In this document: piece after piece, positions 17,431 to 61,266 of the stretch | Numbering within the stretch: position 1 is the first letter of the stretch | How the letters are laid out: the number at the start of each line of letters is the position of its first letter | Assembly: GCA_002085155.1 (NCBI GenBank) | Contig: NASX01000009.1 | Coordinates: 59,323-123,322, forward strand | Length of the DNA stretch: 64,000 nt | Direction: 5' to 3' | Origin: Sorangiineae bacterium NIC37A_2 | GTDB taxonomy: Bacteria; Myxococcota_A; Polyangia; Polyangiales; Polyangiaceae | Position numbers and translations under genes: made by a program | Notes under the pieces: model-generated | Told to the model about the DNA's origin: nothing | Databases searched by the model: none | What the model saw: the letters and a program-made list of their open reading frames with translations, nothing else

Positions 17431-18363
17431 TCATTTCTCAGGGTTCAGATAGAGCTTCGGCGAGCGACCGAACCGGGCCGAAAAAACGCGGTGAAACTGG
17501 GAGTAGGACCCGAAGCCCGCCGCGAGGGCGAGGTCCATGAGCGACAGGGCCTGGCCCCGTTGTTCCGCGGAGTCGACGAGCGCGAAGAAGCGCTGGAGGC
17601 GCTGCTCGGTGCGGTAGTCCTGAAGTTTCTTCCCCACCTCTCGCTGGAAAGATCGACTGAGCCGCACCGCGGACATGCCCAGGCGTTGTGCGAGATCCGC
17701 AAGGGAAGCCCCCGGATCGGCCCCGAGGAGCTCGAGGCAGTCAGCAATTTCGGGCGAGAGGGCCGGATTCGGGAGCGGGGAAGCGCGGTCGCGAGCGGCG
17801 CGGAGGCCGGGAGCGAAAAGGGCGGCGAAGGTCGCGAGCAGCTCTTGTTTTTCGACATCGAAGGGCGCCGAGGTGAGCGCCGCGTCGTTGTAGAAGAGTC
17901 CGAGGGGTTCGCCTTTGTCTACGATGGGAGTCTTCACGAACCAGCCGCGCCCGATCACGCGGGTGTGTTCTCCTTGATGAGCAACGTGGGGAGCGTTGTC
18001 ATAAACTTCAAATGCCGTCTTCCCAGCGATGAGCGCTGCCCAGAGCTGCTCGTCGACGGGATCGACGACGTGGCGGATGTGTCGTTCATCGACGAGCGCT
18101 CCGAGAGCGTTCGTCCCGATCAAGCCGGAGAGCCACTGGCCACTCTTGCTCCGAAGAAACAGAGCAATGCGATCGAGCTCGAGGACAGAGCGGATCCCCT
18201 CGACCGCTGCCCATCCGTACTCGAGCAGTGGGGCGCTTCGGGGGAGGCGTTGTGAGGCGAGCAGCGTCTCTTGCACGCGCCCTGCGGCGGCTGTTTGAGG
18301 CGTAGGACGGATCGCGAGCGCCCCTTCAATGAGGGGCCAATCGACTTGTCGCACCTGAGCCAT
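17431..18363 (-). CDS. AraC-family transcriptional regulator with an N-terminal GAF-like sensory domain
   Basis: The C-terminal double HTH is LADLAQRLGMSAVRLSRSFQREVGKKLQDYRTEQRLQRFFALV...LMDLALAAGFGSYSQFHRVFSARFGRSPKLY. The N-terminal ~190 aa are alpha/beta and GAF-like. Confidence 0.8.
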   Translation of the reverse strand: MAQVRQVDWPLIEGALAIRPTPQTAAAGRVQETLLASQRLPRSAPLLEYGWAAVEGIRSVLELDRIALFLRSKSGQWLSGLIGTNALGALVDERHIRHVVDPVDEQLWAALIAGKTAFEVYDNAPHVAHQGEHTRVIGRGWFVKTPIVDKGEPLGLFYNDAALTSAPFDVEKQELLATFAALFAPGLRAARDRASPLPNPALSPEIADCLELLGADPGASLADLAQRLGMSAVRLSRSFQREVGKKLQDYRTEQRLQRFFALVDSAEQRGQALSLMDLALAAGFGSYSQFHRVFSARFGRSPKLYLNPEK

Positions 18364-18423: not shown

Positions 18424-18669
18424 TTAGGCGACGCTCTCGAGCTCACCCTTTGATTCGGCAGGGAGCGCCTCGAGCGCGGAGAGAAGGGCTCGCGTCTCGC
18501 CTTGGAGCTCGGCCAGGACGGCGAACAGCGCGTCGGGGTCTGCGTCCTTTTGGCCTGCGCGCACGGTGGCGTTCAAGGCGAGCAGGTCGGTCCTGCGGGC
18601 CCGCTCGATCAGCGCACTGTGTGCGGCGCGCCCCACGGAACTCGACTTACTGTTGGAATCTTTTTTCAT
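18424..18669 (-). CDS. 81-aa protein carrying a degenerate MCP signalling-tip motif
   Basis: Its ATG lies 6 nt after the stop of the upstream globin-like gene. Residues 26-40, RTDLLALNATVRAGQ (18550-18594), followed by ...ALFAVLAELQ, resemble the conserved chemoreceptor hairpin tip (QTNLLALNAAIEAARAGE...GFAVVAxEVR). Confidence 0.45.
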   Translation of the reverse strand: MKKDSNSKSSSVGRAAHSALIERARRTDLLALNATVRAGQKDADPDALFAVLAELQGETRALLSALEALPAESKGELESVA

Positions 18670-18675
18670 GGCGGT

Positions 18676-19104
18676 TTAGCTCGGGAGGGTCGGGCGATAG
18701 CTCGAGTTAACGAGATAGGGCTCAAGGGCTAAGAGGCAGTCTTTGAGCTCGGGCAGCGCGCCTGTAGCGCCAAGATCCATCTCATCGGCGACGGCCGTTA
18801 CCAAGAACATCAGTCGGTCAAAGTGTTCAGGGGTCACCGCAAACCCAGCCACCACACCTTGGGGAGAAGGGCCGCGCCAACTTCCAGGTCCACCGGTGAG
18901 TACACAGAGGAACTTCTCCAGCTGGTCGATGAGCGGGACGGGATTCGTTCCGTAGAAGAAAGGTTGGAGGAGCGGATCGCTAAAAACGCGGCTGACGAGC
19001 GCCGTGGTGAACAAGCGCAGCGTGGGCGCGCCTCCGAGCCTCTTGTACAAAGAGGAGTCGAGCTGCGGCTTCGTCCCTCCACCCGTCATCTGAAAAGACT
19101 CCAT
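18676..19104 (-). CDS. Truncated-hemoglobin-fold (2-on-2 globin-like) protein
   Basis: SLYKRLGGAPTLRLFTTALVSRVFSDPLLQPFFYGTN...QLEKFLCVLTGGPGSW...VTPEHFDRLMFLVTAVADEM follows the trHb pattern (LY-x-x-LGG, FF, GGP, I/V-T-x-x-HF). The expected proximal His and B10 Tyr are not obvious. Confidence 0.7.
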   Translation of the reverse strand: MESFQMTGGGTKPQLDSSLYKRLGGAPTLRLFTTALVSRVFSDPLLQPFFYGTNPVPLIDQLEKFLCVLTGGPGSWRGPSPQGVVAGFAVTPEHFDRLMFLVTAVADEMDLGATGALPELKDCLLALEPYLVNSSYRPTLPS

Positions 19105-19122
19105 AGCACGTCCCTTTCAGAT

Positions 19123-19542
19123 TCAGTTGACGTTCGCGACTTGCTCGGGCCGGAGCACGAACATGAGCTCTTTCTCTTCCGGGATGACAAATTGGATGAG
19201 CTTCCGAGCGAGCTTGGGCATCGTGAGCGGAGGAGGCGCAAGGCGACTATTCGCGACCTCGCGCACGTCCAGGATCGAATCCGCAACCAGGGCGAGGGGA
19301 CCGTCGCTCGTCTTGAGTACAAGCGTTGCGGATTCCGCTGTGGGTTCGACAGCGGAGAGCCCGAGCGTGCTCTTGGGATCGATGGCCGGGATCGGCGCGC
19401 CCCGATAGCTCAAAAGGCCGAGCAGCGCGCTCGGCGCCTTCGGCACGGAACGAAGGGTTTTCGGCGGCAAAATCTCGAGGACGTCGTTGACGTCGACCGC
19501 GCACAATTGGCTCGAGAGGCGGAAAGAGAGAAGGCGGGTCAT
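19123..19542 (-). CDS. cheW: CheW-like chemotaxis coupling protein
   Basis: MTRLLSFRLSSQLCAVDVNDVLEILPPKTLRSVPKAPSALLGLLSYRGAPIPAIDPK... is a typical CheW domain. An ATGA overlap links it to the upstream gene (19539-19542). Confidence 0.8.
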   Translation of the reverse strand: MTRLLSFRLSSQLCAVDVNDVLEILPPKTLRSVPKAPSALLGLLSYRGAPIPAIDPKSTLGLSAVEPTAESATLVLKTSDGPLALVADSILDVREVANSRLAPPPLTMPKLARKLIQFVIPEEKELMFVLRPEQVANVN

Positions 19543-20252
19543 TCGGCGGGCACCTGCATGGGTGGGGGAAGTTGGCTCGGAGCGTTCGGACCGACGGCCA
19601 TCCCGCCAGCGACGGCGACGCCTTCGGGATCGAGCAGCAGGGCGACATCACCGCTCTGGAGCTGGCAGGCGCCCGCGTAGGTCTTCACGCTGCGCAGCAC
19701 CCGGGGGGGCGGTAGGCAGGACACGTCAACGGCGTCCCCGACCTCATCAACGACGAGCCCGTAGGTCTGGTCGCGGACGTGCACAGGCAAGATGGTCATC
19801 GGTCCGGGTTGCTCATTGCGAGGAGCACCGAGCACATCGCTCAAATAGATGAGCGGGAGCAGGCTCTCGTCGACGCGGATGACGGGGGCGCCGCAGGCGA
19901 AGCTGATCTCTTCTTGGGCTTGCTCCTCGGAGAGCACGAGGGCCTCCGAGACGTGTTGGTCAGCGAAGACGAAGTGCTCGGCACCGAGGCGTACCGGGAC
20001 ACAGTGGCTCGGCGCGGGAAGCTCGAATTTGTCTTCCCGGAAGCGGGCCTGTTCGGCGTCCCCGTGAGGAAGAGCCTGGCTGAGCGCTTCGCGGAGCGAC
20101 TCGGCGAGCTCATCGACCACGACGCTCAGATGATTGGCGCGCTCAACGAGGCGGGCATCTTGAAGCTTTTCACTGCACTCGAGCAGAGCATTGCGGGTGG
20201 CGCTCAGATCTTCGACGGTCTGAGCGAGGCGATCGAGCGGGTTCGTCTTCAT
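19539..20252 (-). CDS. CheW-domain protein with an N-terminal coiled-coil extension
   Basis: The C-terminal CheW-like domain is VPVRLGAEHFVFADQHVSEALVL...GAPVIRVDESLLPLIYLSDVLG...ILPVHVRDQTYGLVVDEVGDAVDV. The N-terminus MKTNPLDRLAQTVEDLSATRNALLE is helical. The maximal ORF extends to TTG 20462, so the start is uncertain. Confidence 0.65.
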   Translation of the reverse strand: MKTNPLDRLAQTVEDLSATRNALLECSEKLQDARLVERANHLSVVVDELAESLREALSQALPHGDAEQARFREDKFELPAPSHCVPVRLGAEHFVFADQHVSEALVLSEEQAQEEISFACGAPVIRVDESLLPLIYLSDVLGAPRNEQPGPMTILPVHVRDQTYGLVVDEVGDAVDVSCLPPPRVLRSVKTYAGACQLQSGDVALLLDPEGVAVAGGMAVGPNAPSQLPPPMQVPAE

Positions 20253-20597
20253 CTTGTGGGGGCTCACTGGGGGGACGGGGTGCACGGCGCCCGTGGGGGT
20301 GGACACGGTTGGATGCCACTGCACTTCCGGGGATGTGCAGGGGCGAGCTCCCTGTAGGTTCGTCGCTGCGCGGCTCACTTGTTCCATGCTGGGCCCACTT
20401 GCTTCTTCGTCATGGGACAGTACGGACCCAGGACGTGAGGCATTAAGGGGCTTTCGCCTCAAACAGAGACCATGTCTGAGGGGCCTCTCGCGCTCACTGG
20501 TCAGAAACTTGGAGCCTCGGATTCGTTTCGCCCATCATGTCGAGAGCGGTCCCTGTGAGCCGGCTGCGCGCTCACGGACCCCGAAAGGAGCGAAAAG

Positions 20598-21032
20598 ATG
20601 CGAAAATTGCCCGAATTTTTCAGCCGCGCCTCGCGACGGGTCGTGAGACTCAAGTGTCAGGTGGTGCTTGAACGGGATTTTCGTCTGGTAGCGGATCGCA
20701 TCATGGACCTTTCGACGACGGGGCTCCTGGTCGGGCCCTCGGACCCGGTGCTCACTGGAGAGCGGGTGTTTGTGTCCTTTGAGCTTCCGGAGCGTCGAGG
20801 TTGGCTCGACACGATGGCGACGGTGCAGCGTGTCCTACATGGACGCCGTCCGGGGGAAGCCACGCGCATGTTGGGCCTGAGCTTCGACCCGCTCGGTCCC
20901 TACGACCGCTATCGTCTCCGGCGTGCGATTGAAGAGCGTCCGCCCATCCCCGTGGGCGCGAGGCCCGGTCGTCGGGCTGCTCGCTTCTCTCCTCGGGAGC
21001 TGTTTCCCCTCAGCCCCGCGCTCGAGTGCTGA
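20598..21032 (+). CDS. PilZ domain protein (c-di-GMP receptor candidate)
   Basis: An AGGAG lies 8-9 nt upstream of ATG 20598. It has the RxxxR motif (RASRR) and the D-x-S-x-x-G motif (DLSTTG) with the spacing typical of PilZ. Confidence 0.7.
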   Translation: MRKLPEFFSRASRRVVRLKCQVVLERDFRLVADRIMDLSTTGLLVGPSDPVLTGERVFVSFELPERRGWLDTMATVQRVLHGRRPGEATRMLGLSFDPLGPYDRYRLRRAIEERPPIPVGARPGRRAARFSPRELFPLSPALEC

Positions 21033-31794: not shown

Positions 31795-33135
31795 ATGTCC
31801 CGTATCGCCGCCAAATTCGGTGGAACGAGCTGCGCAAGCGCCGCCCAAATTCGGAAGGTCAAGAGCATTGTCGACGAGGATCCTCGGCGACAAGTTGTCG
31901 TCGTCTCGGCGCCGGGTAAGCGCGTCAAGACGGAAGCCAAGGTCACCGACCTTCTCTACTTGTGCGCTGAGACAGTCCAGATTGGGGCCGACGCGCGTGG
32001 CACCTTCGACGTCATCGCTGAGCGTTTTCTCGAGATCGAGCGTGAGCTCGGCGTCGACGCCGGCATCGCCTCTGAGATGGAGCTCTTTTGGGAGCAGCTC
32101 AAGGCGGGGGTGACGCTCGATTTCGTGGCGTCGCGTGGTGAATATTGGAACGCCAAAATCGTCGCGCGTTTCCTCGACGCGATCTTCATCGATCCGCTGA
32201 AGTCGATCTCGATTCTCTCGAATGGTCTTGTTGATCCGGCGACCTATGAGGCCCTCGGCGCTGAGCTCCAGCCTGGACGCCGCTATTTGATCCCGGGTTT
32301 CTACGGGCGCGGCCCGGACGGCCAGGTGAAGACCTTCTCCCGCGGCGGTTCGGACATTTCCGGCGCGATCGCCGCTCGCGCGATCGGCGCTGTCGTGTAC
32401 GAGAACTGGACGGACGTCTCCGGATTTTTGATGGCCGACCCGCGCATCATCGACAGCCCGCGTCCGATGGTCGAGGTGACTTACCGCGAGCTGCGCGAGC
32501 TCTCGTACATGGGCGCGTCGGTGCTTCACGATGAAGCGACCTTGCCGGTGCGTGAAGTGGGCATCCCGATTCAGATCAAGAACACCAACGAGCCTTCTCA
32601 TCCTGGCACACGCATCGTGAGCCGACTGAGCGATCAGGAGGAGAAGACAACGGCCATTGCCGGTATCGCCGGCAAGGAGACGTTCTCGATGATCTGCATC
32701 GAGAAGAGCCTCATGAACAAGGAGGTCGGCTTTACCTACCGCGCCCTCGGCATCCTGCAGCAGCGCGGCCTCAGCATCGAACATGTTCCGTCGAGCATCG
32801 ACGGCCTGAACATCATTTGTGACTCCGAGAAGCTCTTGCCCCAGGCGGATCAGGTGCTCAAGGAGATCCAGACCCAGCTCTCGCCCGACAAGGTGACGCT
32901 GGTGCGCGAGCTTGCGCTGATCGCGATCGTCGGTGAAGGCATGAGCCGCACCATCGGTATCTCCGCGCGGGTGTTCGGCGCGCTCGCCCGGGCCAACGTG
33001 AACGTTCAAGTCATCAACCAGGGCGCGAGCGAAGTGAACATCATCGTCGGCGTGGCACCGGCGGACTTCAAGACCGCGATCGCCGCGCTCTATCACGAGT
33101 TCGTCGACTCGAAGAGCGGTCAGCCGCGCGTCTGA
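31795..33135 (+). CDS. lysC: Aspartate kinase (monofunctional, ~446 aa class)
   Basis: It has the N-terminal KFGGTSCASA, VVVSAPG, FSRGGSDISGA, and C-terminal ACT-like repeats (IAIVGEGM...VNVQVINQGASEVNIIVGV). Confidence 0.9.
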   Translation: MSRIAAKFGGTSCASAAQIRKVKSIVDEDPRRQVVVVSAPGKRVKTEAKVTDLLYLCAETVQIGADARGTFDVIAERFLEIERELGVDAGIASEMELFWEQLKAGVTLDFVASRGEYWNAKIVARFLDAIFIDPLKSISILSNGLVDPATYEALGAELQPGRRYLIPGFYGRGPDGQVKTFSRGGSDISGAIAARAIGAVVYENWTDVSGFLMADPRIIDSPRPMVEVTYRELRELSYMGASVLHDEATLPVREVGIPIQIKNTNEPSHPGTRIVSRLSDQEEKTTAIAGIAGKETFSMICIEKSLMNKEVGFTYRALGILQQRGLSIEHVPSSIDGLNIICDSEKLLPQADQVLKEIQTQLSPDKVTLVRELALIAIVGEGMSRTIGISARVFGALARANVNVQVINQGASEVNIIVGVAPADFKTAIAALYHEFVDSKSGQPRV

Positions 33136-36080
33136 GGAGGCGGCGGGCCGGCGTTGGCACTGCGCCTGAGGTTCGGTCCGCCCCGCGCGAGCAGCGCCAG
33201 CACAAAAATCAAAAGCACAGCCGTTGAGATGGAGAGGACAGCGGCCGGATCGCTCAGGCCCTGACCGTGCTCGAGGCCGAGCGCTCCGGTCAGGGTTTCA
33301 CTTTCCGTGTGAGCCAGGGCGCAGCGAAAGTACCCCCCGTCGATGAAGTCTGGCAGGCGATCAGGGGTGCCCGGGCCGAGCGCGATGTTCCAGGCGGGGT
33401 CTTCTTGCGCCGCGAGACGCTCGGGGCGGATCACTCCTTGGAAGCCCCAGCGCGCCGGGATGACGAGCATGGGCCATTTGAGCCAAGGGACGGTCGTCAC
33501 GGGCACCATCAGCCCTCCGAGCACAACCTGGGGGATGAGCGCGATCGGAGTGAGCGCCATGGCTGCTTCGCTCGTCTTGACCAGGCTCGAAATGAGGAGG
33601 CCGAGAGCTACCGAGCAGATGGCCGTGAGACAAAGAATCCCCAGCTCCGTTCCAAAGGCCGGCGCGCCTCCCCCTAGATCCAGCAGGAACCAGAGCAAGC
33701 TGAGGAGCGCTCCACACTGCAGGATCGAGAGCAGGGACAGCACGATGAACTTTGAGGCGATGTAGTTCGTGGCGCTCAGGTGCACCATGCGCTCGCGCGC
33801 GTAAATGGCGCGTTCGGACACGATCTCCCGCGCCGCGTTGCTCGTTCCGAACCAAATGGCGCTCACGACCATGAAGAAGAGCGCCGGAGCTCGGTCGGTT
33901 GCGGGCAAGATACGCTCGGGCAGGCCCGACAGATCGATGTCTTGTCCGGCCAGGGCTCGGAGCTCATCGAGCGCTCCGTAACACCACGCGGGCGCCGCCG
34001 GCTTCTGATCTCCGAACACGAGCCCGAGGAGCACGCCGATCAGGGGCGCCTGGAGGAGCAGGATCGCAGTGCTCACAGAGTCGCGGAGTTTGATTTTGGT
34101 GTAGCGCGCGATCAGGATGCCGAGGGCGCGCAGGCTTCGGGCCCGGCGTGGAGCGGCCTCGTGCGCGACGTCGGAGGAGAGGGGAGCCCGGCGCCCGCTT
34201 CGCATCTCCCGAGCGATGGTGGAGGCCTCGTATTCTTCCCGGAACAGTGCGGAGACGGCGGCTCTTGCCTGAGCGGGTTCCATGTCAAGCTTCTTCTGAC
34301 GCTCGCGCAGCTCCGCGAACATGTCGCGGGGATTGTCGATGTGTGCCCGCTCGAGGGGCGGACGCCAGGATTCGAAGAAGGCGTAGGCCGCGGTGGTCGG
34401 CCCGAAGTAGAGCGGGACGCCGCCAGGCCCGAGGATCAGGGCGAGGTTGAAACGTTCGTATTCGCGGCGCGCTGGTTGATGGATGGTCGCGATGATGGTC
34501 TTGCCGCCTTGGCTGGCGAGACGCTCGAGGAGGAGCACGAGCTGAGCTGTGTCGTCGGCCGCGAGCCCGCTCGTGGGTTCGTCGAGGAACAGCAGGACGG
34601 GGTCCGTGACCAGCTCCATCGCGATGTTGACCCGCTTGCGCTGGCCGCCGCTCAAGACCTTGGCGTCGGGCTTGCCGATGCGGAGGTGAGCCACGTCGAG
34701 CAAGCCGAGCTCTTCCAGCGTGCGCGTGACGCGGGCGTCAATCTCTTCCGGGCTGTAGTCCGCCGGCAGGCGGAGCCGGGCGCTATAAGTCACGGCCTCA
34801 CGCACCGTGAGCTCTGGGTGCACGATATCGTCCTGCGGAACGTAGCCGATGCTTCCGCGCAGCGAGCTGAAGACTGCCTCGAGGGGGCGCCCGTTGACCC
34901 GAATCTGTCCAGAGGTCGGTGCGAGGGCGCCGGTGAGCGTGTGCAAGAGGGTCGTCTTGCCGGCTCCGCTCGGCCCCATGAGCGCGATCAGGTCGCCCGG
35001 GAGCGCCTTGAAGCTGACACGGTCGAGCAGAACCTTCGACTGGTCGGGTCGGAGTCGATCAGGCACGACGATCGTGACTTCATGGGCTTCGATCTCGAAG
35101 GAGGGCTTCAGAGCAAAGCCCTCTTCGTCAATCACGGCGAGCGTCACCGCATCGCCGTCGACGCCGAGGCGAGTCGCGATGGGTCCGAGATGGATCTCGG
35201 CGCCCGCTTCGACGACGCGGCGTTCAAAAGGACGAAGACGGGCTCCCTGGACTAACGTCCCGAGGTCGCTCCCGGCGTCCTCGAGCAGGATCTGTCCGTG
35301 GGAAACGATCAGGGTCGCGTGGTGGGCCGAGATTTGGGGGTATTCAATGACAATGTCGGCATCCCGTGAGCGTCCGATCCGAAATGAGCGCGCCTTGGCC
35401 ATCTGAACGGACCCGACCACCGTGTGGTGACGGCGCCTCGGCGCGCTCGCGGCGGCTGAGTTCGCGCCGCCGAAGGTCGGATGCACGGGTTCTGCGGGAG
35501 GGCCGAGACCGTGCTCGTGGAGCTCGGTGAGGGCGCGGATCGACAGGACCGTCGAACCGAGCGCGATGATCGCGTCCGGCTCGACCGTGGTGGCCTCGTG
35601 GGGTGGGAGCAAGCGCTCCCCGACGCGGGTGCCGCTCGTGGAGCCGTGATCTTCGATCGTGACCGGCGCTCCCGGGAAGGGCGGGAACTGAACGGTAGCG
35701 TGACGGTTCGAGACGCTTGGATCGAGGAAGTAGAGATGACACTCGGAGGGCTCCCGACCGAGCACGATTTCCCCGAGGGTAAATGGGAGCTCCCCGCGTC
35801 GACACTGCATCTTGAGCAGCACAGGATGCAAGGGATCGAGAAGTGAGCGATGCGTTTGATAGACCGCGAGCGGGTCGAGGCGAAAGGGCTCACTGCCGCA
35901 GGGGACACCGTTCTTCTGCCAGTCACTACCCGGCGCGGGTACGAGCGTCAGTACACCACCGCCGCTGTGCACGACCTCGCCCTCCAGAGGTAAGACCGCG
36001 TCTCCGAGCAGCCGAATATCACAGCTGTCCCGCGAGCCGATGGTGATGGTCTGTACACCGAGGCGGACTTTTGAGGTCAT
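33120..36080 (-). CDS. ABC transporter (ATPase + ABC-2/ABCG-type permease) with an N-terminal FHA-domain array
   Basis: There are two canonical FHA domains (LGREPSECHLYFLDPSVSNRHATVQF...IEDHGSTSGTRV and IGRSRDADIVIEYPQISAHHATLIV...LEDAGSDLGTLV) plus a degenerate one at the N-terminus. Walker A is GPSGAGKTTLLHTL, the signature is LSGGQRKRVNIAMEL, and Walker B is LLFLDEPTSGL. The C-terminal half has ~6 TM. Confidence 0.85.
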   Translation of the reverse strand: MTSKVRLGVQTITIGSRDSCDIRLLGDAVLPLEGEVVHSGGGVLTLVPAPGSDWQKNGVPCGSEPFRLDPLAVYQTHRSLLDPLHPVLLKMQCRRGELPFTLGEIVLGREPSECHLYFLDPSVSNRHATVQFPPFPGAPVTIEDHGSTSGTRVGERLLPPHEATTVEPDAIIALGSTVLSIRALTELHEHGLGPPAEPVHPTFGGANSAAASAPRRRHHTVVGSVQMAKARSFRIGRSRDADIVIEYPQISAHHATLIVSHGQILLEDAGSDLGTLVQGARLRPFERRVVEAGAEIHLGPIATRLGVDGDAVTLAVIDEEGFALKPSFEIEAHEVTIVVPDRLRPDQSKVLLDRVSFKALPGDLIALMGPSGAGKTTLLHTLTGALAPTSGQIRVNGRPLEAVFSSLRGSIGYVPQDDIVHPELTVREAVTYSARLRLPADYSPEEIDARVTRTLEELGLLDVAHLRIGKPDAKVLSGGQRKRVNIAMELVTDPVLLFLDEPTSGLAADDTAQLVLLLERLASQGGKTIIATIHQPARREYERFNLALILGPGGVPLYFGPTTAAYAFFESWRPPLERAHIDNPRDMFAELRERQKKLDMEPAQARAAVSALFREEYEASTIAREMRSGRRAPLSSDVAHEAAPRRARSLRALGILIARYTKIKLRDSVSTAILLLQAPLIGVLLGLVFGDQKPAAPAWCYGALDELRALAGQDIDLSGLPERILPATDRAPALFFMVVSAIWFGTSNAAREIVSERAIYARERMVHLSATNYIASKFIVLSLLSILQCGALLSLLWFLLDLGGGAPAFGTELGILCLTAICSVALGLLISSLVKTSEAAMALTPIALIPQVVLGGLMVPVTTVPWLKWPMLVIPARWGFQGVIRPERLAAQEDPAWNIALGPGTPDRLPDFIDGGYFRCALAHTESETLTGALGLEHGQGLSDPAAVLSISTAVLLIFVLALLARGGPNLRRSANAGPPPPQTRG

Positions 36081-38170
36081 GGACGGATGAACTCGACGCG
36101 GAGAGATTCAGGGCCGAGCTCAATCGTATCTTCGTCTCGAACCTCGACGAACTTTCCTGGGGCGATGCGCTCACCGCGGACGCGGGTCCCGGAGTGCGAG
36201 TTCTCATCGCGCACGAGCAGAGTGCTGCCTTCGATGCGGAAGGTCGCGTGCACCCCGGAGACCTGCGGATGACTGAGGACGGCCGTCGCGCGAGAGCCAT
36301 CGCGGCCAATCGTGAGTTCACTGTCGGGGAGAACGGTGAAGCGCTCATTTTTCCCGCGCAGGACCACCCGCGCCATCGGCTGTGGCTCCTTGCGCGGGCC
36401 TCTCTGACTGATCGGAGCCGGTGTGAGGTACGGGGAGCCTTCGATGCGGATTCCGGAGTAGGTTGTGAGCGCCGTCCTGCGCCTCGAGATCAAACGAGCG
36501 AGCCCAAACCAGATCAGCGTGAGGATGATCGCCGCCGCCCCGCCGAGGGCCCAATACCAGAACTTCGGGATCGGGCGCTTCATGGCTTTGACCTCGATAG
36601 CTGTGCCGGCGGTGAGGCCGCTCGAGCGCTTTGCTTTGCGGTCGACGATCACGAAACGGGCTGCCTGTCGCTCCCCGGCTCCGTGCAGGATGCGATCGGT
36701 GTCCGGGACGCGGAACTCGGCGAAGGCTTCATTGGCTGCGACAGCAGGGCTCCTCATATCGAGGGCGATCAGACGCTTGCGCACGTCCTCGTAGGAGTTA
36801 CTGCCGCTGGTTTGCAGAGAGTCGGGCAGAGTCTCACCGGGCGGCAGGAAATAGACCTCCGGGCGGCTCAGGTCGCCGCCCCAGCAGAACTGCCCGAACA
36901 CCTTGAAGGTTGAGCCGGGAAAAAGCCCTCCAGCCGCGTCAATCTCACGGCGCGTCGTCGCGAGATCGACATCGAGAGGCCAGCTCGCCGGATCGAAACC
37001 GAGCGGCACGTCCTTGAAGGAGGAGTCGCCGACAATGGGCGGGTCGGCGGCAGGGAAGATCAAAGAAAGCGACTGGGTGAGGGTGCTCGCGACGCAGGCG
37101 AGCCGGAACCTCGCCACTAGGAGCGACGCGAAGCGCGCTCGAACCGCATCGACGATGCGCGGGGCGCGGGCGGACTGGCCCTTCTGAACCACGCTGAAAA
37201 AACCCCCGATCTCCGGGTTCGCCAGGTTGCGCATGAAGTCGCTGGCGAGCTGCGCGTGTTCAGCGTAGCCCGTGGGGGGAGTCATGATGGCGATCGTCGG
37301 GAGCGGCAGCTTGGGCAGGAGCGCGTCGCCTTCGCCGAACTTTCCTGCGGTGAGGTAGCGAGAGAGCTCGGCCGCGCCGGGGCCTGTTGTCGCGGGGTCA
37401 CCGCCGCCGTAGCCGCTCGAGAGGAAGAGAACCGCCTGATGGAGCGGGAGGCGCATCCCGCTCGGCGGAGAGAGGGTGCGGAAGGCGTCCTGGATTGTGC
37501 GCTTGAGCAGGGTGAGCAGGGGGCGCGTTCTGTCCCGCGATTTGACGACATCACGCGTCTTGCTGAGAACACTCTCCGCCGCGTCTCGCCCCGACTGCGT
37601 CTGCCAGCCGCTATCGCCGATGACCTGTTTCTCTCCGAGGACGACGACGTTGACGAGATCGGTCGCGGCGAGAGCCGAGACAAAGGCGCTTGCGACGCGA
37701 TGGAGCTCTTGGAAACCTGGTTTGCCCCGCTCGTCGGCGTCGAGCACGATGAGCCAAGCGGTGCCGATGCCGGGCTCGTGAACCGCGTCGCCGAAACGGG
37801 TCACGCTTTCGAGCTTGGCCGGGAACTCTTCGCCGTCGATGCGCACGGTGAGCAGAGTCTGCTCAGCGGGCATCTTGTAGGGGCGATACAGGGCCTGGGG
37901 CGCCTCGAGAGCATCGCTCTCGCAGTTCAGCGCCTCGGTGCCGGTCAGTCCGGCGCAGTGCCCTGTTACTTCACTGATGCGTCGGGCCTCGCTGAGATCG
38001 ACGATCGTCGTCAGGATCGGGGCGCCGCTGCTCGTAACAGTCTCCGGATCGACACGTAGGATCCTCGCTGCGGGGGTCGCGAAGGCGACCGCCGGCAGCA
38101 GCATGAAAATGGCCCAACAAATGGCGCCGACGGAGCGCATAGCGGCCAAGTATAGGTGAGGATCGGGCAT
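36077..38170 (-). CDS. Bitopic membrane protein: periplasmic vWA-like domain, one TM, cytoplasmic C-terminal FHA domain
   Basis: The signal peptide is MRSVGAICWAIFMLLPAVAFA. vWA-like beta-alpha-beta segments (AWLIVLDADERG..., VNVVVLG, AVLFLSSGYGG) lack a DxSxS MIDAS. The TM is WYWALGGAAAIILTLIWFGLARLI. The FHA is TIGRDGSRATAVLSHPQVSGVHATFRIEGSTLLVRDENSHSGTRV. An ATGA overlap links it to the ABC gene. Confidence 0.7.
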   Translation of the reverse strand: MPDPHLYLAAMRSVGAICWAIFMLLPAVAFATPAARILRVDPETVTSSGAPILTTIVDLSEARRISEVTGHCAGLTGTEALNCESDALEAPQALYRPYKMPAEQTLLTVRIDGEEFPAKLESVTRFGDAVHEPGIGTAWLIVLDADERGKPGFQELHRVASAFVSALAATDLVNVVVLGEKQVIGDSGWQTQSGRDAAESVLSKTRDVVKSRDRTRPLLTLLKRTIQDAFRTLSPPSGMRLPLHQAVLFLSSGYGGGDPATTGPGAAELSRYLTAGKFGEGDALLPKLPLPTIAIMTPPTGYAEHAQLASDFMRNLANPEIGGFFSVVQKGQSARAPRIVDAVRARFASLLVARFRLACVASTLTQSLSLIFPAADPPIVGDSSFKDVPLGFDPASWPLDVDLATTRREIDAAGGLFPGSTFKVFGQFCWGGDLSRPEVYFLPPGETLPDSLQTSGSNSYEDVRKRLIALDMRSPAVAANEAFAEFRVPDTDRILHGAGERQAARFVIVDRKAKRSSGLTAGTAIEVKAMKRPIPKFWYWALGGAAAIILTLIWFGLARLISRRRTALTTYSGIRIEGSPYLTPAPISQRGPRKEPQPMARVVLRGKNERFTVLPDSELTIGRDGSRATAVLSHPQVSGVHATFRIEGSTLLVRDENSHSGTRVRGERIAPGKFVEVRDEDTIELGPESLRVEFIRP

Positions 38171-55077: not shown

Positions 55078-58000
55078 ATGGAAGTGTCACAGAAGGAAGG
55101 GTCGACCCGGCCGCGTCGCTCGAGACCTGCGCCGAGTCCTGACCCGCTCGACTCGGGGTTTCCGGCGTTCGCTGACCGGTACGATCTCGAGATCCAACGC
55201 TTCATTGGTAAGAGCGCACCCCTCGCGACCCTCTCCGCACAACTCCAGGCCGCGCGGCGCGCAGGAGACCCCACGCGCATCGCCGACGTCCTGGAGCGAC
55301 TTGCTCATCACCTCACGAAGCTTGGCATCGAACCGGGCCTCGCGGCGACGGCGCTCGAAGAGGCGCGAGCCGTGGGCAAACGCGACATCCTCCCGATGCT
55401 CATTGATGCTTGGCACCGGGCCGGAGATGCGGAGCGGGCGCTCGAGTACTTTGGCGCCTGGGTCGCTGAGTTCGAAGGCGGAGTGAGTGAAGAGTTTGTT
55501 CGGGACGCGCTGGCGTTCTTGATGAGAGGAGCTGACCTCGCGGCGCACCTCGGCGATCCACAACAGGCCCGTCGCGCGCTCACGCTCGCTGACGATTTGG
55601 CCCTGCGCCAGCCGACGCTCCGAGCAGAGATCCAGCGCAAGCTGGGCGCGATCGGCTTTTGGACGGGCGATCTCGACGTCGGAGCCAGCGCGTACCTTTT
55701 GGCCGCGGAGCTCGGAGAGCTCGCTGGCTCCGGCGAGGCGCCGCTCGAAGATGCTCGGCGCGCTTTTGAGCTCACTCCGAGCCGGCGTGATGTTGCCGAG
55801 AACGTCGCGCGAAGGTTCAGCACGCGCGGTCGCATGGCGGCCGCCGATGCGGTTCGACGGCTCTCAGTGAAACACGGCGGCGCGGCCGATCGCGCGACTT
55901 ACCATGGGCGGCGCTTTCAAGCAGCGCTCCGCGCGAAGAATTGGGGAGAGGCGCTCGGCGCGGCGCTCGAAGCGGGTCTCGATATTGAGCTCGACCTCGA
56001 ACGGACGCGCGAGGTGCTCGCACAGCCTCCTTTGGTCCCGACCGACTTTGAGAGTTTTCTGCTCGCACTTGCGCAAGGCGTGTGGCTTCCGGAGACGGAG
56101 CCCTTCGCCCAGTGGCTGCTCGGCTTGATGGAGGCGCACGCTTGCCTCTGGGGTGAAGCGGAGGCTCATGGCCTTCGCTCCCGGGCGATTCAGCTGCTCG
56201 CCCTCGACCGACCGACGTCGGTGACTCCTCCAATCTCCGAGCCGCGAGCTCGCGCTCTCAGACAGCGTCTCGCCGAGGATATCTCCCCAGAGGAGGCTAC
56301 GCGCCTGCGCGATGAGATTGCGCGGAGTGAGCTGCAGCGAAGGAATTTCGAGGCGGCCTTTGAGGTGCTCGAACCGAACCTTGAAAAGGACTGTCCGGGC
56401 GCCCTCCAAGCCGCCATCGATTTGTTCATCGTGAGTCGTGTGGGGGAACGCGGGCGGGTGCGTGCTCTCTCTCGCTTGGCTCGGACGCTACCAGCCTCGG
56501 CGCGCACGGAGGTGCTCGCGGTCGCGTCATTGACCGCCGTGCTCTCGGGGGAGGGTCCTCTTGCCTATCGTTTGGCCGAGCAGGCTCTCACAGGCGATCC
56601 TGGCTCAGAGCGGGCTGTCGTCGCTATGTCTGAGGTCGCGACGACCTACCCCGCATTGGTCCCCGCGCGCTTCATTGAGGCGACCTTGGCGGAAGCTGTC
56701 ACGACCGCCGAAAAGTGCTTGATCCTTTCGCGTGCGGCCGAGGAGCGGGGAGCGCTGATGCTCTCGCTCACTTGGGCTGAGCAGGCGCGCAACCTTCGTC
56801 CCGCGGATCCCGAAGCACATCGGGTCGTCTTGGGACTGGCCCAACGCGCCGAGGATGCAGCGCGGCTGGCCGACGCGATTCAGACGGTCGCTCGTGCCTT
56901 CGTCCCGCACGACCGGATCGCCGATGCCATTGAGTCGGCGCTCATCGCTCTATCGGAGCTCGACGAAGAGCGAGCTATTGGTACTGGAGAAGAGGTTCTC
57001 TCCCATTCAGGACACATCGAAGCCCTGCGCAGCGCGGTGATCCATGTCGCCGAGAAAGCGCACGCGCCCCTTCTGCTCGCTCGGGCGCTCGACCTCTCGC
57101 TCGCGAGCCGCGTTGCCGGCGACGTAGGCCTGCTCCTCTCAAAGCTGGCTCGCGCTCGCGCAGAAGCGGGCGATCTGGCTGCGGGGCTCCGCGCATGGTT
57201 CCGTTACATCGCCGAGCACGGCGGAGACCCGGAGCTTCCGGAATTCCTCGCGGCGAGCGGTGCGGTCGACGACAGCCAAGCTGATGCGGAGTTGTATCGA
57301 ACGGAGGTGGAGGTGCTCATCCGCCGTCGGAAGGGCGAGCTCAAAGCCGAGGAGCTCTTCCGCCTTGCGGTACTGCGCTGGGATTTGGCGAAGGATACCG
57401 ACGGAGCGTTCGAAGCGCTCCTGTCTGCCGCCCGACTCGTGCGCGACGACGGCTACGGGCTCATGTTCCACTATCTCCTCCGCTTGGCGGGCGCCACGAC
57501 CGCCGCTGAGCTCCTCGAAGCACGAGCTGCCTTAGAGGACGACGCCGAACGTGCGGGGACATTGCTTGGGCTCGCGAGTCGGGGGCGCCTGCTCTCGGGC
57601 GAACGGGCGCGGGCGTTCCAGCTCGCGCAAAAGGCGCTGCAGCGGAACTCCCATCAGCCGGAGCTCTTGCTGCTCGCGGAGCGCACTCTGGCTACCGGAG
57701 AGCTGGATCGATTGGAGGCTCTCTATGACCACGTGGCGGACAACGCCTATGGCCGCTTCGGCGAGCGAGCGGTTCGTTATCGTGCGGCGCGACTTCTCGA
57801 GCGACGAGGCGGGATCGAACGCGCGTTCCGTCACGCGCAACAAGCCTTTGAAGCGGCCCCCGATGAAGGTGTCACGTTCATCCTCTTCTCGCGGATGGCG
57901 AGCGCGCTCGGAAAGTCGGAGCTGATCCCGGATGTGATCGATGCTTCGCTCAGCCGCGTGCGAGATGCGCGCACCCGAGAGCGCCTGAAGAGGAGGCGCG

Positions 58001-61000
58001 ACGCGCTCCGCGCAAACGGTCAAAAACCAGGACTCGGGCAGGCTGAGGTTTTGTTCCGGGCGATGGCGCTGTCTTACACGCCTGAACTCGGTCAGGACCT
58101 CGAGAAGGTTCTCTCTGCGCTCCTCAGTCAGGAGGAGTCTCGTGAGCAGGCGCTCGAATGGACGAAAGAAAAGGCCCCCGAACTGCTCATCGCGCTGAGC
58201 GGCCCTGACCGAACTCGCGCCGCGATCCACCTCACACGGATCGCACTTCAGCACTTTCCGGACGATGAGTTTGCGTTCTTCTGCTTGGGCCGCGCCGTTT
58301 CGGGGAGCCTCCAGGAGGCGGAGTATGAGTCTCTGCTCGAGTTCAAGGATCGTCTGGGGACGCACAAGCAAGAGCTGCTCGAGCTCTGGGGACGGATCAA
58401 ATCCATGAGTGACTCCGGTGAGCTCTTGGGTAGTCCGCTTGCGATCGTGCTCGCCGAGAGCATGGCCATCGCTGAGTTATCCTCGGAAGCCGCCGAAGTC
58501 CTCGTTCACGCCGCGTCCGATACTCCCGATGACGTGCGTGTGAGCCAGCGCGCGCGGGAGCTCGCCGAACAATCTGGGCGCTTGGACCTAGTTCCCGCGA
58601 TTGAAGGGCTCTTGCCGGCTCCGCTTTGGGTCCGATCGATCTTGGACCGAATCGACAGCCTCCCGGATGAAGAAGCCGTGAACGCTCTCGTCGAGGTGGA
58701 TCTCTCCACGGCTCCTCCCGAGCTCAGGGCAGAGGCCCTTGAAGCGCTCGCGCGCCGGGAAGAGAGGCTCTCGAGGTTTGCGGACGCCCGCGACACTTGG
58801 CAAGAGCTCCTGGAGCTCGACCCGAAGAACCTCGCAGCGCTCATGGGGCTCGAACGAGCAGCGGATCGCGACGATGACCACGAGGCCCTCCTCGAGATTC
58901 TGACGCGCCGAGCTCAGCTGGCGTCGGATCCTGACGCGGAACGGACGATTCACTTGCGCCGCGCGGCGGTCCTCGAGACGCACCTGGGACGGCCCCTCGA
59001 AGCGCGCCAGCTCCTCGAAGAGCTGCTCGAGCGACAAGGCGACACCTGGTCGGTGCTTCGACTCTTGGCCGACTCCTTCGAGCGCACCAGTGAACATGCG
59101 CGAGCGGCGGAGCTTTGGTCGAGGGCGCAGGCGGTGGCTGTCGACGTGGAAGCGGCGGCCGATGCGTGTTTTCGGGCGGCCCGCGCCTATTTTGAGGCTG
59201 GCGATCTATGGCGCGCCCAGGACTCCCTTCGTTATGTCGATATGGGGAGGGTAGATTGCGTCGAGCTGGGCTTGAAGGTGCATCGCGCACTTGGCGATCA
59301 GGCAGCGGTGATGGATGCGCTTACGGTCGCGGCGCGCATGAAGCGCGACGATCGTGAGTTCGTTACCAAGGCGCTCCTCGAGGCCGCCGAGATCGCGATG
59401 AAACTCGACGCTCCGGATGTGGCGGAAGGACACGCGCGGGACGCGATTCGTCTCGGCACGGACTCTCCGGAGGCTCGCCTCCTCTTGGCTCAGCTGATCG
59501 CCCGCAGAGCTCGGCCGCTGGAGAAAGCCGACGCGGAGGAGATCGCTTCTTTGCTTCCGGGGACCGAATCACTCCGTGGCGCGCAGCAGCGAGAGGTTCG
59601 TGCTTACCTGCTCGCCATCGTCGACGAGCGTCTGCGGGGAGGCGAGGCCTGCCGAGCGGATTTGCGAGCAGCGATCGCGTCCCAAGGGCCCCGTCCCCTC
59701 CTCGCCGCGGCACTTGCGCGTCGCTTAGACGACGATCCGGAGGAGGCTTTGAAGCTCTACGAGTCGGCGATGGGCGGGGAGTTTGCGGGGCTCATGAGTC
59801 GTTCCGACGTGGTCGTCGAGGCGGCTTCGCTCGCCCGCGACACCGGGCAGTTCGCTCGCGCTCAGGCTTTTCTCTCGGCGATTGCGGATTCGGAGCTGCC
59901 GCGAGGCAAGGTGGAGGAGATGCTCGAAGGGATCCGCGCTTCGCGCTCGCGCGCCGAGGAGTTCGATTCGAAGAATTGGCGCGCCTGGGCCCAGGCGCCG
60001 CGAGGGGTGTCAGACGAAGCTCGAGCTCGGGCGCTCAAAGAAGCGCGCGAAGCGGAGAATCTGGCGCGCAGTCAGGCGGCCCGCGAGGAGCGGGTGTTCT
60101 CGCCTCCTTCGGAGCCGAGCCCCAGCGAGGCAGGGAGCAGAGAGCCGTCCCATCACCCGACCTCGGACGCGAGCGCGCTCGAAATTGCAGAAGAGGCGGA
60201 GCTCGTGCGGGCCTTCGAGGAGGGGGACATCGAGGCGGGCCAGTCCCTCTTCGACATCTACATGAGCGACCGCGCCCGCAGTCGGGACGCTGTGCTCGTC
60301 GCGATGCACCTCGTCGATAAGGCCCCTTGGGATCCTGACGCGCTGAGTTGCCTCGCGACGGCGGCGAGTCGAGATGGGAGCGAAGCGGTAGCGCTCGCTT
60401 GTCGCCACTTGCTCGCTGCTTTCGGTGAGGGAGAGCCGGTTCAGCCAGTGGACCTCGCGCTCCTTGTCGGGCAGCCCGACGCGGCCAGCGCCGTGATCTT
60501 CCGGGGGGCGATGACTCCGTCGGCGGAGGCGCTCCGCATCGTTTGGGAGCATGCTGGAGGCCTGTTCCGCCGTGACCTCGCCGACTATGAGGTCGATCCT
60601 GCGGCCCGCGTGTCCCCTTCTGAGCCGGGACCGCTCCCAGAGGCGTACCGGGGGGCGAGCCGCGTGCTGGGCGTGCGCTCGCCGCTTTATGCGCGTCCAG
60701 ATGGGGAGGACATTGCGATCTCCGTCCTTGTGACGATACCGCCGTCGATCCTCGTCGACGGTGCCGTTGACGCTGTGAGCGACGAGTTCCGCTTCCACCT
60801 CGGGGCGATGCTCATGGCCACCGCTCCCGAGTTCGTCCTGTTGCTCGGGAGTCAGCCGGAAGAGGCGAAACTCCTCCTCGATGCCATCTGTCAGGCCTTT
60901 GGTCCGAGTGAGCGGAGCTCCACACAAGACCCAAAGGTGGTGGAGCTATCGGCTCGTCTCTGGGAGCTGATCCCAGCCCGCGCCCAGCGTCGTCTCAACC

Positions 61001-61266
61001 AGCTTTGCGCGGATCCGAACGCCATGAACCTGGATCTGGCCTTCGCCAACGCGACCATCGTGCTTCGGCGCGCGGGGCTCCTCGTGAGCGGCGACATTCG
61101 CACGGCGATTTCAGAGGTTTGTGCCGCCCACCAGCTGGAGAGCCCGACGAACTGGGAGGAGCTTGCCGAGGTGGCGCGCGCGTTGCCGGAGGTCGTTGAC
61201 CTCTTGTTGCTCGCGGTCTCTCTCGAGTACGCGGAGCTGAGGTTCCGTCCGGTTCCGGGGATCTGA
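55078..61266 (+). CDS. Giant (2062 aa) all-helical TPR/HEAT-like repeat protein with a distinct C-terminal ~360-aa domain; function unknown
   Basis: It is a single uninterrupted ORF with strong third-position GC bias. Its composition is dominated by A/L/E/R, with many TPR-like units (e.g. GRPLEARQLLEELLERQGDTWSVLRLLADSFERTSEHARAAELWSRA). I found no HExxH, Walker or other catalytic motif. An acidic/Ser-Pro linker near residue ~1660 precedes the C-terminal domain. Confidence 0.7.
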   Translation: MEVSQKEGSTRPRRSRPAPSPDPLDSGFPAFADRYDLEIQRFIGKSAPLATLSAQLQAARRAGDPTRIADVLERLAHHLTKLGIEPGLAATALEEARAVGKRDILPMLIDAWHRAGDAERALEYFGAWVAEFEGGVSEEFVRDALAFLMRGADLAAHLGDPQQARRALTLADDLALRQPTLRAEIQRKLGAIGFWTGDLDVGASAYLLAAELGELAGSGEAPLEDARRAFELTPSRRDVAENVARRFSTRGRMAAADAVRRLSVKHGGAADRATYHGRRFQAALRAKNWGEALGAALEAGLDIELDLERTREVLAQPPLVPTDFESFLLALAQGVWLPETEPFAQWLLGLMEAHACLWGEAEAHGLRSRAIQLLALDRPTSVTPPISEPRARALRQRLAEDISPEEATRLRDEIARSELQRRNFEAAFEVLEPNLEKDCPGALQAAIDLFIVSRVGERGRVRALSRLARTLPASARTEVLAVASLTAVLSGEGPLAYRLAEQALTGDPGSERAVVAMSEVATTYPALVPARFIEATLAEAVTTAEKCLILSRAAEERGALMLSLTWAEQARNLRPADPEAHRVVLGLAQRAEDAARLADAIQTVARAFVPHDRIADAIESALIALSELDEERAIGTGEEVLSHSGHIEALRSAVIHVAEKAHAPLLLARALDLSLASRVAGDVGLLLSKLARARAEAGDLAAGLRAWFRYIAEHGGDPELPEFLAASGAVDDSQADAELYRTEVEVLIRRRKGELKAEELFRLAVLRWDLAKDTDGAFEALLSAARLVRDDGYGLMFHYLLRLAGATTAAELLEARAALEDDAERAGTLLGLASRGRLLSGERARAFQLAQKALQRNSHQPELLLLAERTLATGELDRLEALYDHVADNAYGRFGERAVRYRAARLLERRGGIERAFRHAQQAFEAAPDEGVTFILFSRMASALGKSELIPDVIDASLSRVRDARTRERLKRRRDALRANGQKPGLGQAEVLFRAMALSYTPELGQDLEKVLSALLSQEESREQALEWTKEKAPELLIALSGPDRTRAAIHLTRIALQHFPDDEFAFFCLGRAVSGSLQEAEYESLLEFKDRLGTHKQELLELWGRIKSMSDSGELLGSPLAIVLAESMAIAELSSEAAEVLVHAASDTPDDVRVSQRARELAEQSGRLDLVPAIEGLLPAPLWVRSILDRIDSLPDEEAVNALVEVDLSTAPPELRAEALEALARREERLSRFADARDTWQELLELDPKNLAALMGLERAADRDDDHEALLEILTRRAQLASDPDAERTIHLRRAAVLETHLGRPLEARQLLEELLERQGDTWSVLRLLADSFERTSEHARAAELWSRAQAVAVDVEAAADACFRAARAYFEAGDLWRAQDSLRYVDMGRVDCVELGLKVHRALGDQAAVMDALTVAARMKRDDREFVTKALLEAAEIAMKLDAPDVAEGHARDAIRLGTDSPEARLLLAQLIARRARPLEKADAEEIASLLPGTESLRGAQQREVRAYLLAIVDERLRGGEACRADLRAAIASQGPRPLLAAALARRLDDDPEEALKLYESAMGGEFAGLMSRSDVVVEAASLARDTGQFARAQAFLSAIADSELPRGKVEEMLEGIRASRSRAEEFDSKNWRAWAQAPRGVSDEARARALKEAREAENLARSQAAREERVFSPPSEPSPSEAGSREPSHHPTSDASALEIAEEAELVRAFEEGDIEAGQSLFDIYMSDRARSRDAVLVAMHLVDKAPWDPDALSCLATAASRDGSEAVALACRHLLAAFGEGEPVQPVDLALLVGQPDAASAVIFRGAMTPSAEALRIVWEHAGGLFRRDLADYEVDPAARVSPSEPGPLPEAYRGASRVLGVRSPLYARPDGEDIAISVLVTIPPSILVDGAVDAVSDEFRFHLGAMLMATAPEFVLLLGSQPEEAKLLLDAICQAFGPSERSSTQDPKVVELSARLWELIPARAQRRLNQLCADPNAMNLDLAFANATIVLRRAGLLVSGDIRTAISEVCAAHQLESPTNWEELAEVARALPEVVDLLLLAVSLEYAELRFRPVPGI

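Follow-up and report, generated by a model that had tools for sequence, protein, structure and literature searches.

A chemoreceptor hairpin-tip homologue encoded with CheW, a CheA-P5-like protein and a truncated-hemoglobin-fold protein in a Sorangiineae genome

INTRODUCTION

Chemoreceptor arrays are a model of cooperative signalling. To our knowledge, the hairpin tip of the methyl-accepting chemotaxis proteins (MCPs), CheW and the CheA kinase's P5 domain are the minimal parts that form the array lattice, and they have been isolated so far only by protein engineering, as Tm14 fragments and receptor foldons. In HemAT, a sensor globin of the 3-on-3 fold, with its heme on the proximal His, and a full-length signalling domain are parts of a single polypeptide. 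We know of no case in which the truncated-hemoglobin (trHb) lineage feeds chemotaxis. Here, we describe a four-gene locus of Sorangiineae bacterium NIC37A_2, a metagenome-assembled genome of the phylum Myxococcota to which the DNA was assigned by database match. The locus lies in a stretch of 64 kb (the window, throughout this work) and codes for a CheA-P5-like protein without a kinase (gene 1), a canonical CheW (gene 2), a protein with a truncated-hemoglobin fold (gene 3) and a protein of 81 residues homologous to the MCP tip (gene 4).

T. maritima Tm14 fragments of 85–90 residues have been co-crystallised with CheA P4-P5 and CheW (PDB 3UR1/4JPB), and engineered tip segments of 71 residues not only bind CheA and CheW but also change the activity of the kinase (10.1101/2020.03.27.011866). 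ParP of Vibrio, which is encoded among the che genes, enters the arrays through the MCP tips and CheA by means of a P5-like AIF (array integration and formation) domain, and an N-terminal motif serves as a tether (PMC5706961). Of the Frz proteins of Myxococcus xanthus, FrzB acts on the receptor without binding the kinase (PMC6952110), and FrzCD is a cytoplasmic receptor whose basic N-terminal tail binds the nucleoid (PMC5716589). The parts of the locus described here (an MCP tip, a CheW, a CheA-P5/ParP-like protein and a group I trHb, or trHbN) all belong to known families, and their combination seems new: as an earlier note on this DNA had supposed, our searches of the open-access literature turned up no such system, and they found neither a natural MCP reduced to the tip nor a trHb encoded in a che operon.

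RESULTS

Gene 4 codes for a tip-only chemoreceptor homologue

By profile comparisons over a family of 15 sequence clusters, the product of gene 4 (81 residues; 18424..18669, minus strand) is truly homologous to the hairpin tip of the MCPs, in agreement with what the earlier note had read from a short motif. Taken alone, the protein has a sole Pfam match, to MCPsignal (PF00015), with an E value of 0.081 and 13.2 bits against a gathering cut-off of 34.6. An exhaustive HMMER search of 1.84 billion representatives returned only the gene 4 family and two distant members of 79–81 residues, each of which matches MCPsignal by itself at an E value of about 1e-3. Further searching brought the family to 15 sequence clusters, and 11 of the 15 members match MCPsignal individually (best E value, 8.6e-6). 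With a profile built from six close sequences only, the MCP tips in the PDB scored no better than noise, and significance came with the distant members. When the 15-sequence profile is used, the seven best PDB matches are MCP tips, with E values of 3.6e-5 to 4e-4; the matches include 3ur1_C (3.6e-5), 4jpb_B, 3g6b, 2ch7 and 3ja6_H, and then Tsr, PcaY and Aer.

Aligned by hhalign with five full-length MCPs, the family gives a probability of 94.9% and an E value of 4.5e-8 over 43 gap-free columns, which cover residues 20–62 of the window protein (18484..18612, minus strand) and correspond to the MCP protein-interaction region (about residues 368–410 of Tsr). The window protein itself scores 20.1 bits against the MCP hidden Markov model, a score reached by none of 2000 shuffled sequences (mean, −0.1; standard deviation, 3.4; maximum, 13.2). 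The earlier note had envisaged that the open reading frame (ORF) might be unconserved or score no better than shuffled sequence; it is conserved and scores above every shuffle. The five references are ordinary full-length MCPs from metagenomes, none of them a member of the tip family, and because a 10-mer derived from the family served to pick them, the shuffle test is circular to a small extent. The Pfam and PDB results do not depend on this selection.

The family is constant in length (79–82 residues), and both the start (MKKD or SRNKK) and the end of the protein are kept in the 15 clusters, at identities down to 30%. The 81-residue form is recorded on 111 contigs, the MKKD start being the conserved one, and a scan of genome contigs found the family in one GTDB species genome only. 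In NCBI, the small protein is a hypothetical protein of 70 residues (OQX69277.1) that begins 11 codons downstream and so skips 18637–18669 of the minus strand. Given the family alignment, AlphaFold2 (AF2) predicts a helical hairpin, with helices at residues 9–38 and 45–68 and a turn at residues 39–44 (predicted local distance difference test, pLDDT, of 80–86 in the core), and the turn coincides with the aligned Tsr tip (E391). The N-terminal tail is basic and predicted to be disordered. A Foldseek search of the PDB with the modelled hairpin gave nothing at an E value of 0.001 or below, only generic helical hairpins, and is uninformative for such a fold.

With the MCP signalling domain, then, gene 4 shares significant gap-free homology over some 43–60 residues, and its predicted hairpin has the turn at the aligned position. 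What distinguishes it from an MCP is that it is a natural stand-alone protein of 79–82 residues: there are no methylation helices, no flexible bundle, no HAMP domain, no ligand-binding or sensor part and no membrane segments, and the hairpin has only about 30 plus 24 residues. MCPs are reportedly grouped, in the classification of Alexander and Zhulin, into heptad classes with 24 or more heptads; with 81 residues in total, gene 4 has no space for an adaptation or a flexible-bundle region. In size, it is close to the crystallised Tm14 fragments of 85–90 residues and to the 71-residue engineered foldon segments.

The register of the alignment was fixed with the real E. coli tsr sequence, in which T375 corresponds to T27 of the window protein. 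There is no insertion or deletion, and RAGQKDADPDA of gene 4 faces EAARAGEQGRG of Tsr; the proposal that RAGQ represents the RAGE of the receptors after a deletion of three residues placed the register off by three residues. Residues of Tsr that lie within 4 Å of CheW or CheA-P5 in core-unit models (Table 1 of PMC13098124) were compared, with Q374, I377, L380, N381, V384, R388 and R404 as the contact set. I377, L378, L380, N381 and V384 of Tsr are kept across the gene 4 family, so that at the contact sites I377L, L380L/I, N381N and V384V/I are retained. Changed with respect to Tsr are F373R, Q374R/K/E/A, E385R/K, R388Q/K and, in the window clade, R404Q (R in the other clade), and the bulkier F49 and L52 stand at the positions of A397 and A400 of Tsr. 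The C-tail of the tip protein, (E/K)L(E/D)SVA (18424–18444, minus strand), is invariant in the clade that carries the globin and absent in all members from loci without one.

Gene 1 is CheA-P5-like and gene 2 is a canonical CheW

Gene 1 (19539..20387, minus strand) codes for a protein of 282 residues. Its start is the ATG at 20387 and not the TTG at 20462, to which the gene had been extended (307 residues), because the N-terminus is kept from that Met in six orthologues and a promoter-like element, described below, lies inside the extension. The product had been regarded as a CheW-domain protein. Pfam indeed finds the CheW domain (E value, 3e-15), and no HATPase, Hpt or dimerisation domain; the profile of the orthologues, however, matches P5 of T. 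maritima CheA (1.1e-12) and E. coli CheA (1.6e-7), and CheW only at E values above 0.04 (0.05–0.6), and P5-specific indels are common to gene 1 and E. coli CheA. By these comparisons, gene 1 is CheA-P5-like and is not a second CheW. IMG labels it CheA.

The protein opens with a motif, M..PC[TS]..E.EW[HQ]PT, that is invariant in the six orthologues (20307–20387, minus strand) and is followed in them by a variable Pro-rich linker. A helical hairpin is predicted at about residues 50–105 (pLDDT of 73–85, in a single-sequence model that is otherwise poor, with a mean pLDDT of 45), and beyond it are the P5-like SH3-like domain (about residues 130–257; 19617–20000) and a conserved C-tail, GVA..GGM....PS.L (19539–19616, minus strand). 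No relatives of the N-terminal motif and the C-tail were detectable; both look like docking motifs. For the N-terminal helical region, neither Pfam nor the PDB has a significant match, and a remnant of CheA P3, considered for the hairpin, has no support from sequence, a 2-bit stretch against 1b3q being all that was found. In architecture alone, gene 1 can be likened to ParP: both have an N-terminal motif, a linker and a C-terminal P5-like SH3-like domain without a kinase, and gene 1 differs in its additional predicted hairpin and its conserved C-tail. We saw no ParA/ParC-like ATPase gene in the flanks of the loci examined.

Gene 2 (139 residues; 19123..19542, minus strand) is the canonical CheW that it had been taken for. 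The Pfam match to CheW (PF01584) has an E value of 9e-24 and 84 bits against a cut-off of 23.5, every PDB match is a CheW (best, 3.5e-10), and the receptor groove is intact (I33V, V36V, I39I, V105I, D107D). Two CheW-family proteins with different roles that are encoded together in a myxobacterium are likewise found in M. xanthus, in the form of FrzA and FrzB. FrzB, however, is a truncated CheW and not P5-like, FrzCD is full-length and methylatable, and there are no frz genes here. The tip protein has a short basic N-tail, as has FrzCD; binding of DNA by this tail is pure speculation.

Gene 3 has a truncated-hemoglobin fold and has lost the proximal His

Gene 3 (142 residues; 18676..19104, minus strand) matches Bac_globin (PF01152) with an E value of 1e-8 and 35.8 bits, above the cut-off of 21, and its profile aligns without gaps with the trHb of Paramecium (1dlw; 7e-11) and with M. 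tuberculosis HbN (about 1e-10). These matches bear out the truncated-hemoglobin fold that had been assigned to it. Like the group I trHbs, the protein can be aligned gap-free over helices A–G and keeps the Gly-Gly motifs and the CD1 Phe (F50, aligned with F46 of HbN); it departs from trHbN in a Val at F8 in the window clade, an apolar B10 and E11, N- and C-terminal extensions and the che-type setting of its gene. At F8, V85 (18850–18852) stands opposite H81 of HbN and H68 of the Paramecium protein. At the positions that we take, by HbN numbering, to be B10 and E11, V37 replaces Tyr (V/I in all orthologues) and L62 replaces Gln (Leu in all orthologues). The absence of a proximal His and the Val at B10, both pointed out in the earlier note, are thus found against both reference globins, and a normal heme pocket was not found.

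The globins of the sister clade (P0011, L007) have a His at F8 (AHAHLAIT, as compared with VVAGFAVT in the window), and since the sister clade keeps it, the sequences indicate that loss of the F8 His is recent and specific to the window lineage. With Val in place of this His, conventional heme ligation has probably been lost in the window globin, yet the protein is still under purifying selection; the ratio of nonsynonymous to synonymous substitution rates (dN/dS) of 0.11 was measured against another orthologue without the F8 His.

In globin-type loci, the globin gene lies directly upstream of the tip gene; in L007 its stop codon overlaps the start codon of the tip gene (ATGA), and in the window the gap is 6 nt. 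The overlap in L007 and the co-occurrence of the SVA tail with the globin suggest that the globin and the tip protein are physically coupled. As in HemAT, a globin fold is here linked at the gene level with an MCP-tip sequence and with proteins of the CheW type. Unlike that of HemAT, the window globin is a separate protein with the 2-on-2 truncated fold and without the F8 His, and it joined an earlier module that had no globin; it matches Bac_globin and not the sensor-globin family. The locus had been proposed to be a split HemAT. The separate polypeptides and the reduction of the signalling part to the tip stand, whereas the globin is most parsimoniously a late addition, from the trHb and not the sensor-globin lineage, and the locus is not a HemAT that came apart. 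Since the globin is of another lineage, is not fused and is younger than the module, comparison of the sequences places the operon outside the HemAT/globin-coupled sensor family.

The conserved core is a trio

The four ORFs are tightly packed on the minus strand, in the ORF list of the window with sizes of 307 (TTG start), 139, 142 and 81 residues, and are joined by an ATGA overlap of 4 nt, a gap of 18 nt and a gap of 6 nt, exactly as previously noted. Comparison of the window with L013 gives dN/dS values of 0.046 (CheW), 0.11 (gene 1 and also the globin) and 0.17 (small ORF); all four genes are under purifying selection. Many metagenome contigs carry these four genes in unchanged order, and the order is also kept in the sister clade (L007–L012), in which the small protein is 57–60% identical and the downstream neighbour is different. 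The order kept on these contigs and in the sister clade, and the dN/dS values of 0.046–0.17, indicate that the four ORFs are real genes.

Three types of loci can be told apart. Type A, with the P5-like protein, CheW, the globin and the tip protein, comprises the window, L013 and L007–12. In type B (L014/15, L022, L025), the P5-like protein, CheW and the tip protein are encoded without a globin, and the genes downstream are a lipoprotein gene, a response regulator and flagellar rod, FlgJ-like, FliS, FliD and flagellin genes. Type C (L016, L026, L027) has CheW, the tip protein, a CheY-like response regulator and CheX. Conservation of the four-gene order therefore holds for the type A loci, but relatives carry the module without the globin (L014, L022, L025, L016 and L026). 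It follows that the conserved core is the trio of P5-like protein, CheW and tip protein, accompanied in relatives by chemotaxis and flagellar genes. Wherever upstream sequence is visible, the tip gene is directly preceded by CheW or by the inserted globin. From the distribution of these genes, the most parsimonious account of the globin is that it was inserted in one clade.

The flagellar genes beside the module lie at 10326–17530 of L022 and at 1837–10304 of L014; a conserved putative lipoprotein of 353 residues and a response regulator are encoded between them and the type B module. Flagellar genes are unusual in a lineage related to Sorangiineae. L022 also has the whole upstream synteny of the window, from the ROK gene through the PilZ gene. 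In type C loci, cheY and cheX come directly after the tip gene (L016, 504–1288; L026, 720–1297; L027, 466–1055); the response regulator is a single-domain protein (DDxxxMR...DWNMP...KPF), and cheX is a phosphatase gene.

A promoter-like element precedes gene 1

A promoter-like element, CTTAA-N17-CCGTA(C/T)TG (20421..20447, minus strand), is conserved across loci at 29–33 nt 5' of the start codon of gene 1. Wherever the upstream region of gene 1 is present, in globin-type and in flagellar-type loci, there is one copy per locus, with spacing that is exact across very diverged loci (L013, 6223–6249; L007, 8231–8257; L011, 400–426; L014, 140–166; L022, 8581–8607). Elsewhere in the window the element does not occur, against 0.06 copies expected by chance. 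It resembles promoters recognised by alternative sigma factors, of the sigma-28 or extracytoplasmic function (ECF) type. In the loci examined it was not found upstream of flagellar genes, so that nothing points to a regulon shared with these genes. A scan for sigma-70 promoters found nothing.

A PilZ-domain gene (20598..21032, plus strand; Pfam PilZ, E value 4e-8; TIGR02266) is divergent from gene 1. The intergenic region between the two genes (20388–20597) holds two further conserved blocks, ATGATGGGCGAA and CCAAGTTTCTGACC, which may be the promoter of the PilZ gene or an operator. The PilZ gene is found at the same position in L013, L007 and L022 and is a conserved neighbour; its membership of the module is uncertain, and its conserved position may reflect common descent only, since the synteny runs on into housekeeping genes. 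On the other side, 60 nt 3' of gene 4, Pfam identifies a regulator with a GAF domain and an AraC-type helix-turn-helix (17431..18363, minus strand). This gene is confined to loci of the window type (in L007 and L011, mgtE stands there on the opposite strand), and it is outside the conserved module. The regulator is restricted to the window-type sub-clade, the same sub-clade that lacks the F8 His of the globin. No terminator-like site was found on the minus strand between it and gene 4, and it could be co-transcribed with the tip gene.

The search for a second MCP-tip motif across the 64 kb of the window found none, and near the four genes there is neither a kinase nor a full-length MCP, which agrees with the remark in the earlier note that the window has no cheA or full-length MCP. 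Ten large ORFs elsewhere in the window are housekeeping genes or unassigned. An ORF of 2062 residues (55078–61266, plus strand) has a coding-like pattern of GC content over codon positions and no Pfam family at an E value of 1e-5 or below. Two neighbouring genes for FHA-domain proteins lie at 33120–38170 of the minus strand: in one protein (986 residues), FHA domains are fused to an ABC (ATP-binding cassette) transporter ATPase and an ABC-2 permease, and in the other (697 residues) the FHA domain is at the C-terminus.

DISCUSSION

The reading that we regard as probable, if only just, is that the conserved module consists of stripped-down versions of three array-baseplate proteins and that, devoid of a kinase and of a sensor, it scaffolds, tethers or tunes chemosensory arrays. 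The tip protein would fold as a helical hairpin and pair into a short four-helix bundle. The face formed by L29, L32, N33 and V36, in the sequence TDLLALNATV (I377, L380, N381 and V384 of Tsr), would be turned to the grooves of the CheW and the P5-like protein encoded beside it, and the trio would form or join rings of the CheW/P5 type with no sensing, methylation or kinase activity of its own. Possibly, then, it is no receptor and serves chemosensory arrays as scaffold, tether or modulator. In the window clade, a globin gene appears to have been gained, placed after cheW and before the tip gene; its product is probably an accessory subunit, with a candidate docking site in the SVA tail of the tip protein. 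The globin could supply a heme-based input in the sister clade, in which the F8 His is kept, and would act independently of heme in the window lineage.

Several observations weigh against this reading. F373R, E385R/K and R388Q/K, together with the loss of the turn glycines in the window clade, mean that trimerisation or canonical docking of the tip could differ from that of the receptors, and L528 of the P5 groove is not kept in gene 1. Moreover, the gene 4 family is narrow, with about 15 clusters and one GTDB species genome, which limits the comparative signal, and the direction of change, gain or loss of the globin, is a matter of parsimony over few lineages.

The absence of sensing and adaptation parts from the tip protein, whose contact face for CheW and P5 is kept, would also suit a decoy or antagonist: the tip, with its own CheW and P5-like protein, would titrate CheA or CheW away from full-length receptors, or cap the edges of arrays, and so lower kinase output or cooperativity. 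Engineered tip mimetics keep T. maritima CheA in the kinase-off state (10.1101/2020.03.27.011866), and in type C loci the tip gene is accompanied by cheY and the phosphatase gene cheX, which are signal-terminating or output parts. A simple decoy, however, needs no dedicated and co-conserved CheW and P5-like protein, and the N-terminal motif and C-tail of gene 1 point to tethering or scaffolding; we think an antagonist role unlikely, while giving it some weight. Less likely still, in our view, is a split, non-covalent form of a globin-coupled chemoreceptor, in which the globin would sense O2, NO or redox state and pass the signal through the tip to a CheA encoded elsewhere, via the two CheW-type proteins. 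The position of the globin gene immediately before the tip gene (6 nt away here, and overlapping it by ATGA in L007), the F8 His retained in the sister clade and the C-tail that co-occurs with the globin are all consistent with such a relay, and in vitro CheA can be turned on or off by short fragments of the tip (10.1101/2020.03.27.011866). Against it stand the Val at F8 and the wholly apolar distal side (V at B10, L at E11) of the window globin, the conservation of the trio without any globin, the origin of the globin in the 2/2 trHb and not the HemAT sensor-globin lineage, and the fact that no CheA is known for the NIC37A_2 genome. A gas-sensing relay is less likely in the window genome and possible in the sister clade.

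It is very improbable that the ORF of 81 residues has no function of its own, being the decaying remnant of a full-length MCP gene or a helical ORF that arose by chance. Its Pfam score is below the gathering cut-off (13.2 as compared with 34.6 bits) and NCBI annotates only the hypothetical protein of 70 residues; but the length is constant at 79–82 residues, start and end are conserved in 15 clusters, dN/dS is 0.11–0.17, the gene order is fixed, no MCP-like sequence flanks the gene and shuffled sequences never reach its score. The pseudogene or chance-ORF explanation was rejected on the conservation of the family, the dN/dS values and the shuffle test. To return to a module that scaffolds, tethers or tunes arrays, its most elaborate version would be a natural, minimal chemosensory core of tip, CheW and P5-only protein that self-assembles into array-type rings; in one myxobacterial clade a detachable trHb would have been plugged into it, giving a globin-coupled receptor system held together non-covalently, in which the globin of the window lineage would no longer depend on heme. 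This version we regard as possible but doubtful.

The tip protein also points to a gap in annotation: it is listed as hypothetical, is given the wrong start in NCBI and is missed by the Pfam thresholds. The orthologous globins with and without the F8 His, in the same operon setting, constitute a paired natural experiment, and the pair is relevant to the ways in which globin folds enter signalling and to the role that they may retain after heme ligation is lost. If the module works as we propose, the trio would offer a small native complex for structural work on the contacts between receptor, CheW and P5, and would represent a new class of array accessory proteins or regulators besides ParP, CheV and FrzB. 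It would also mean that evolution uses the lattice module of the chemoreceptor arrays apart from sensing and from kinase activity.

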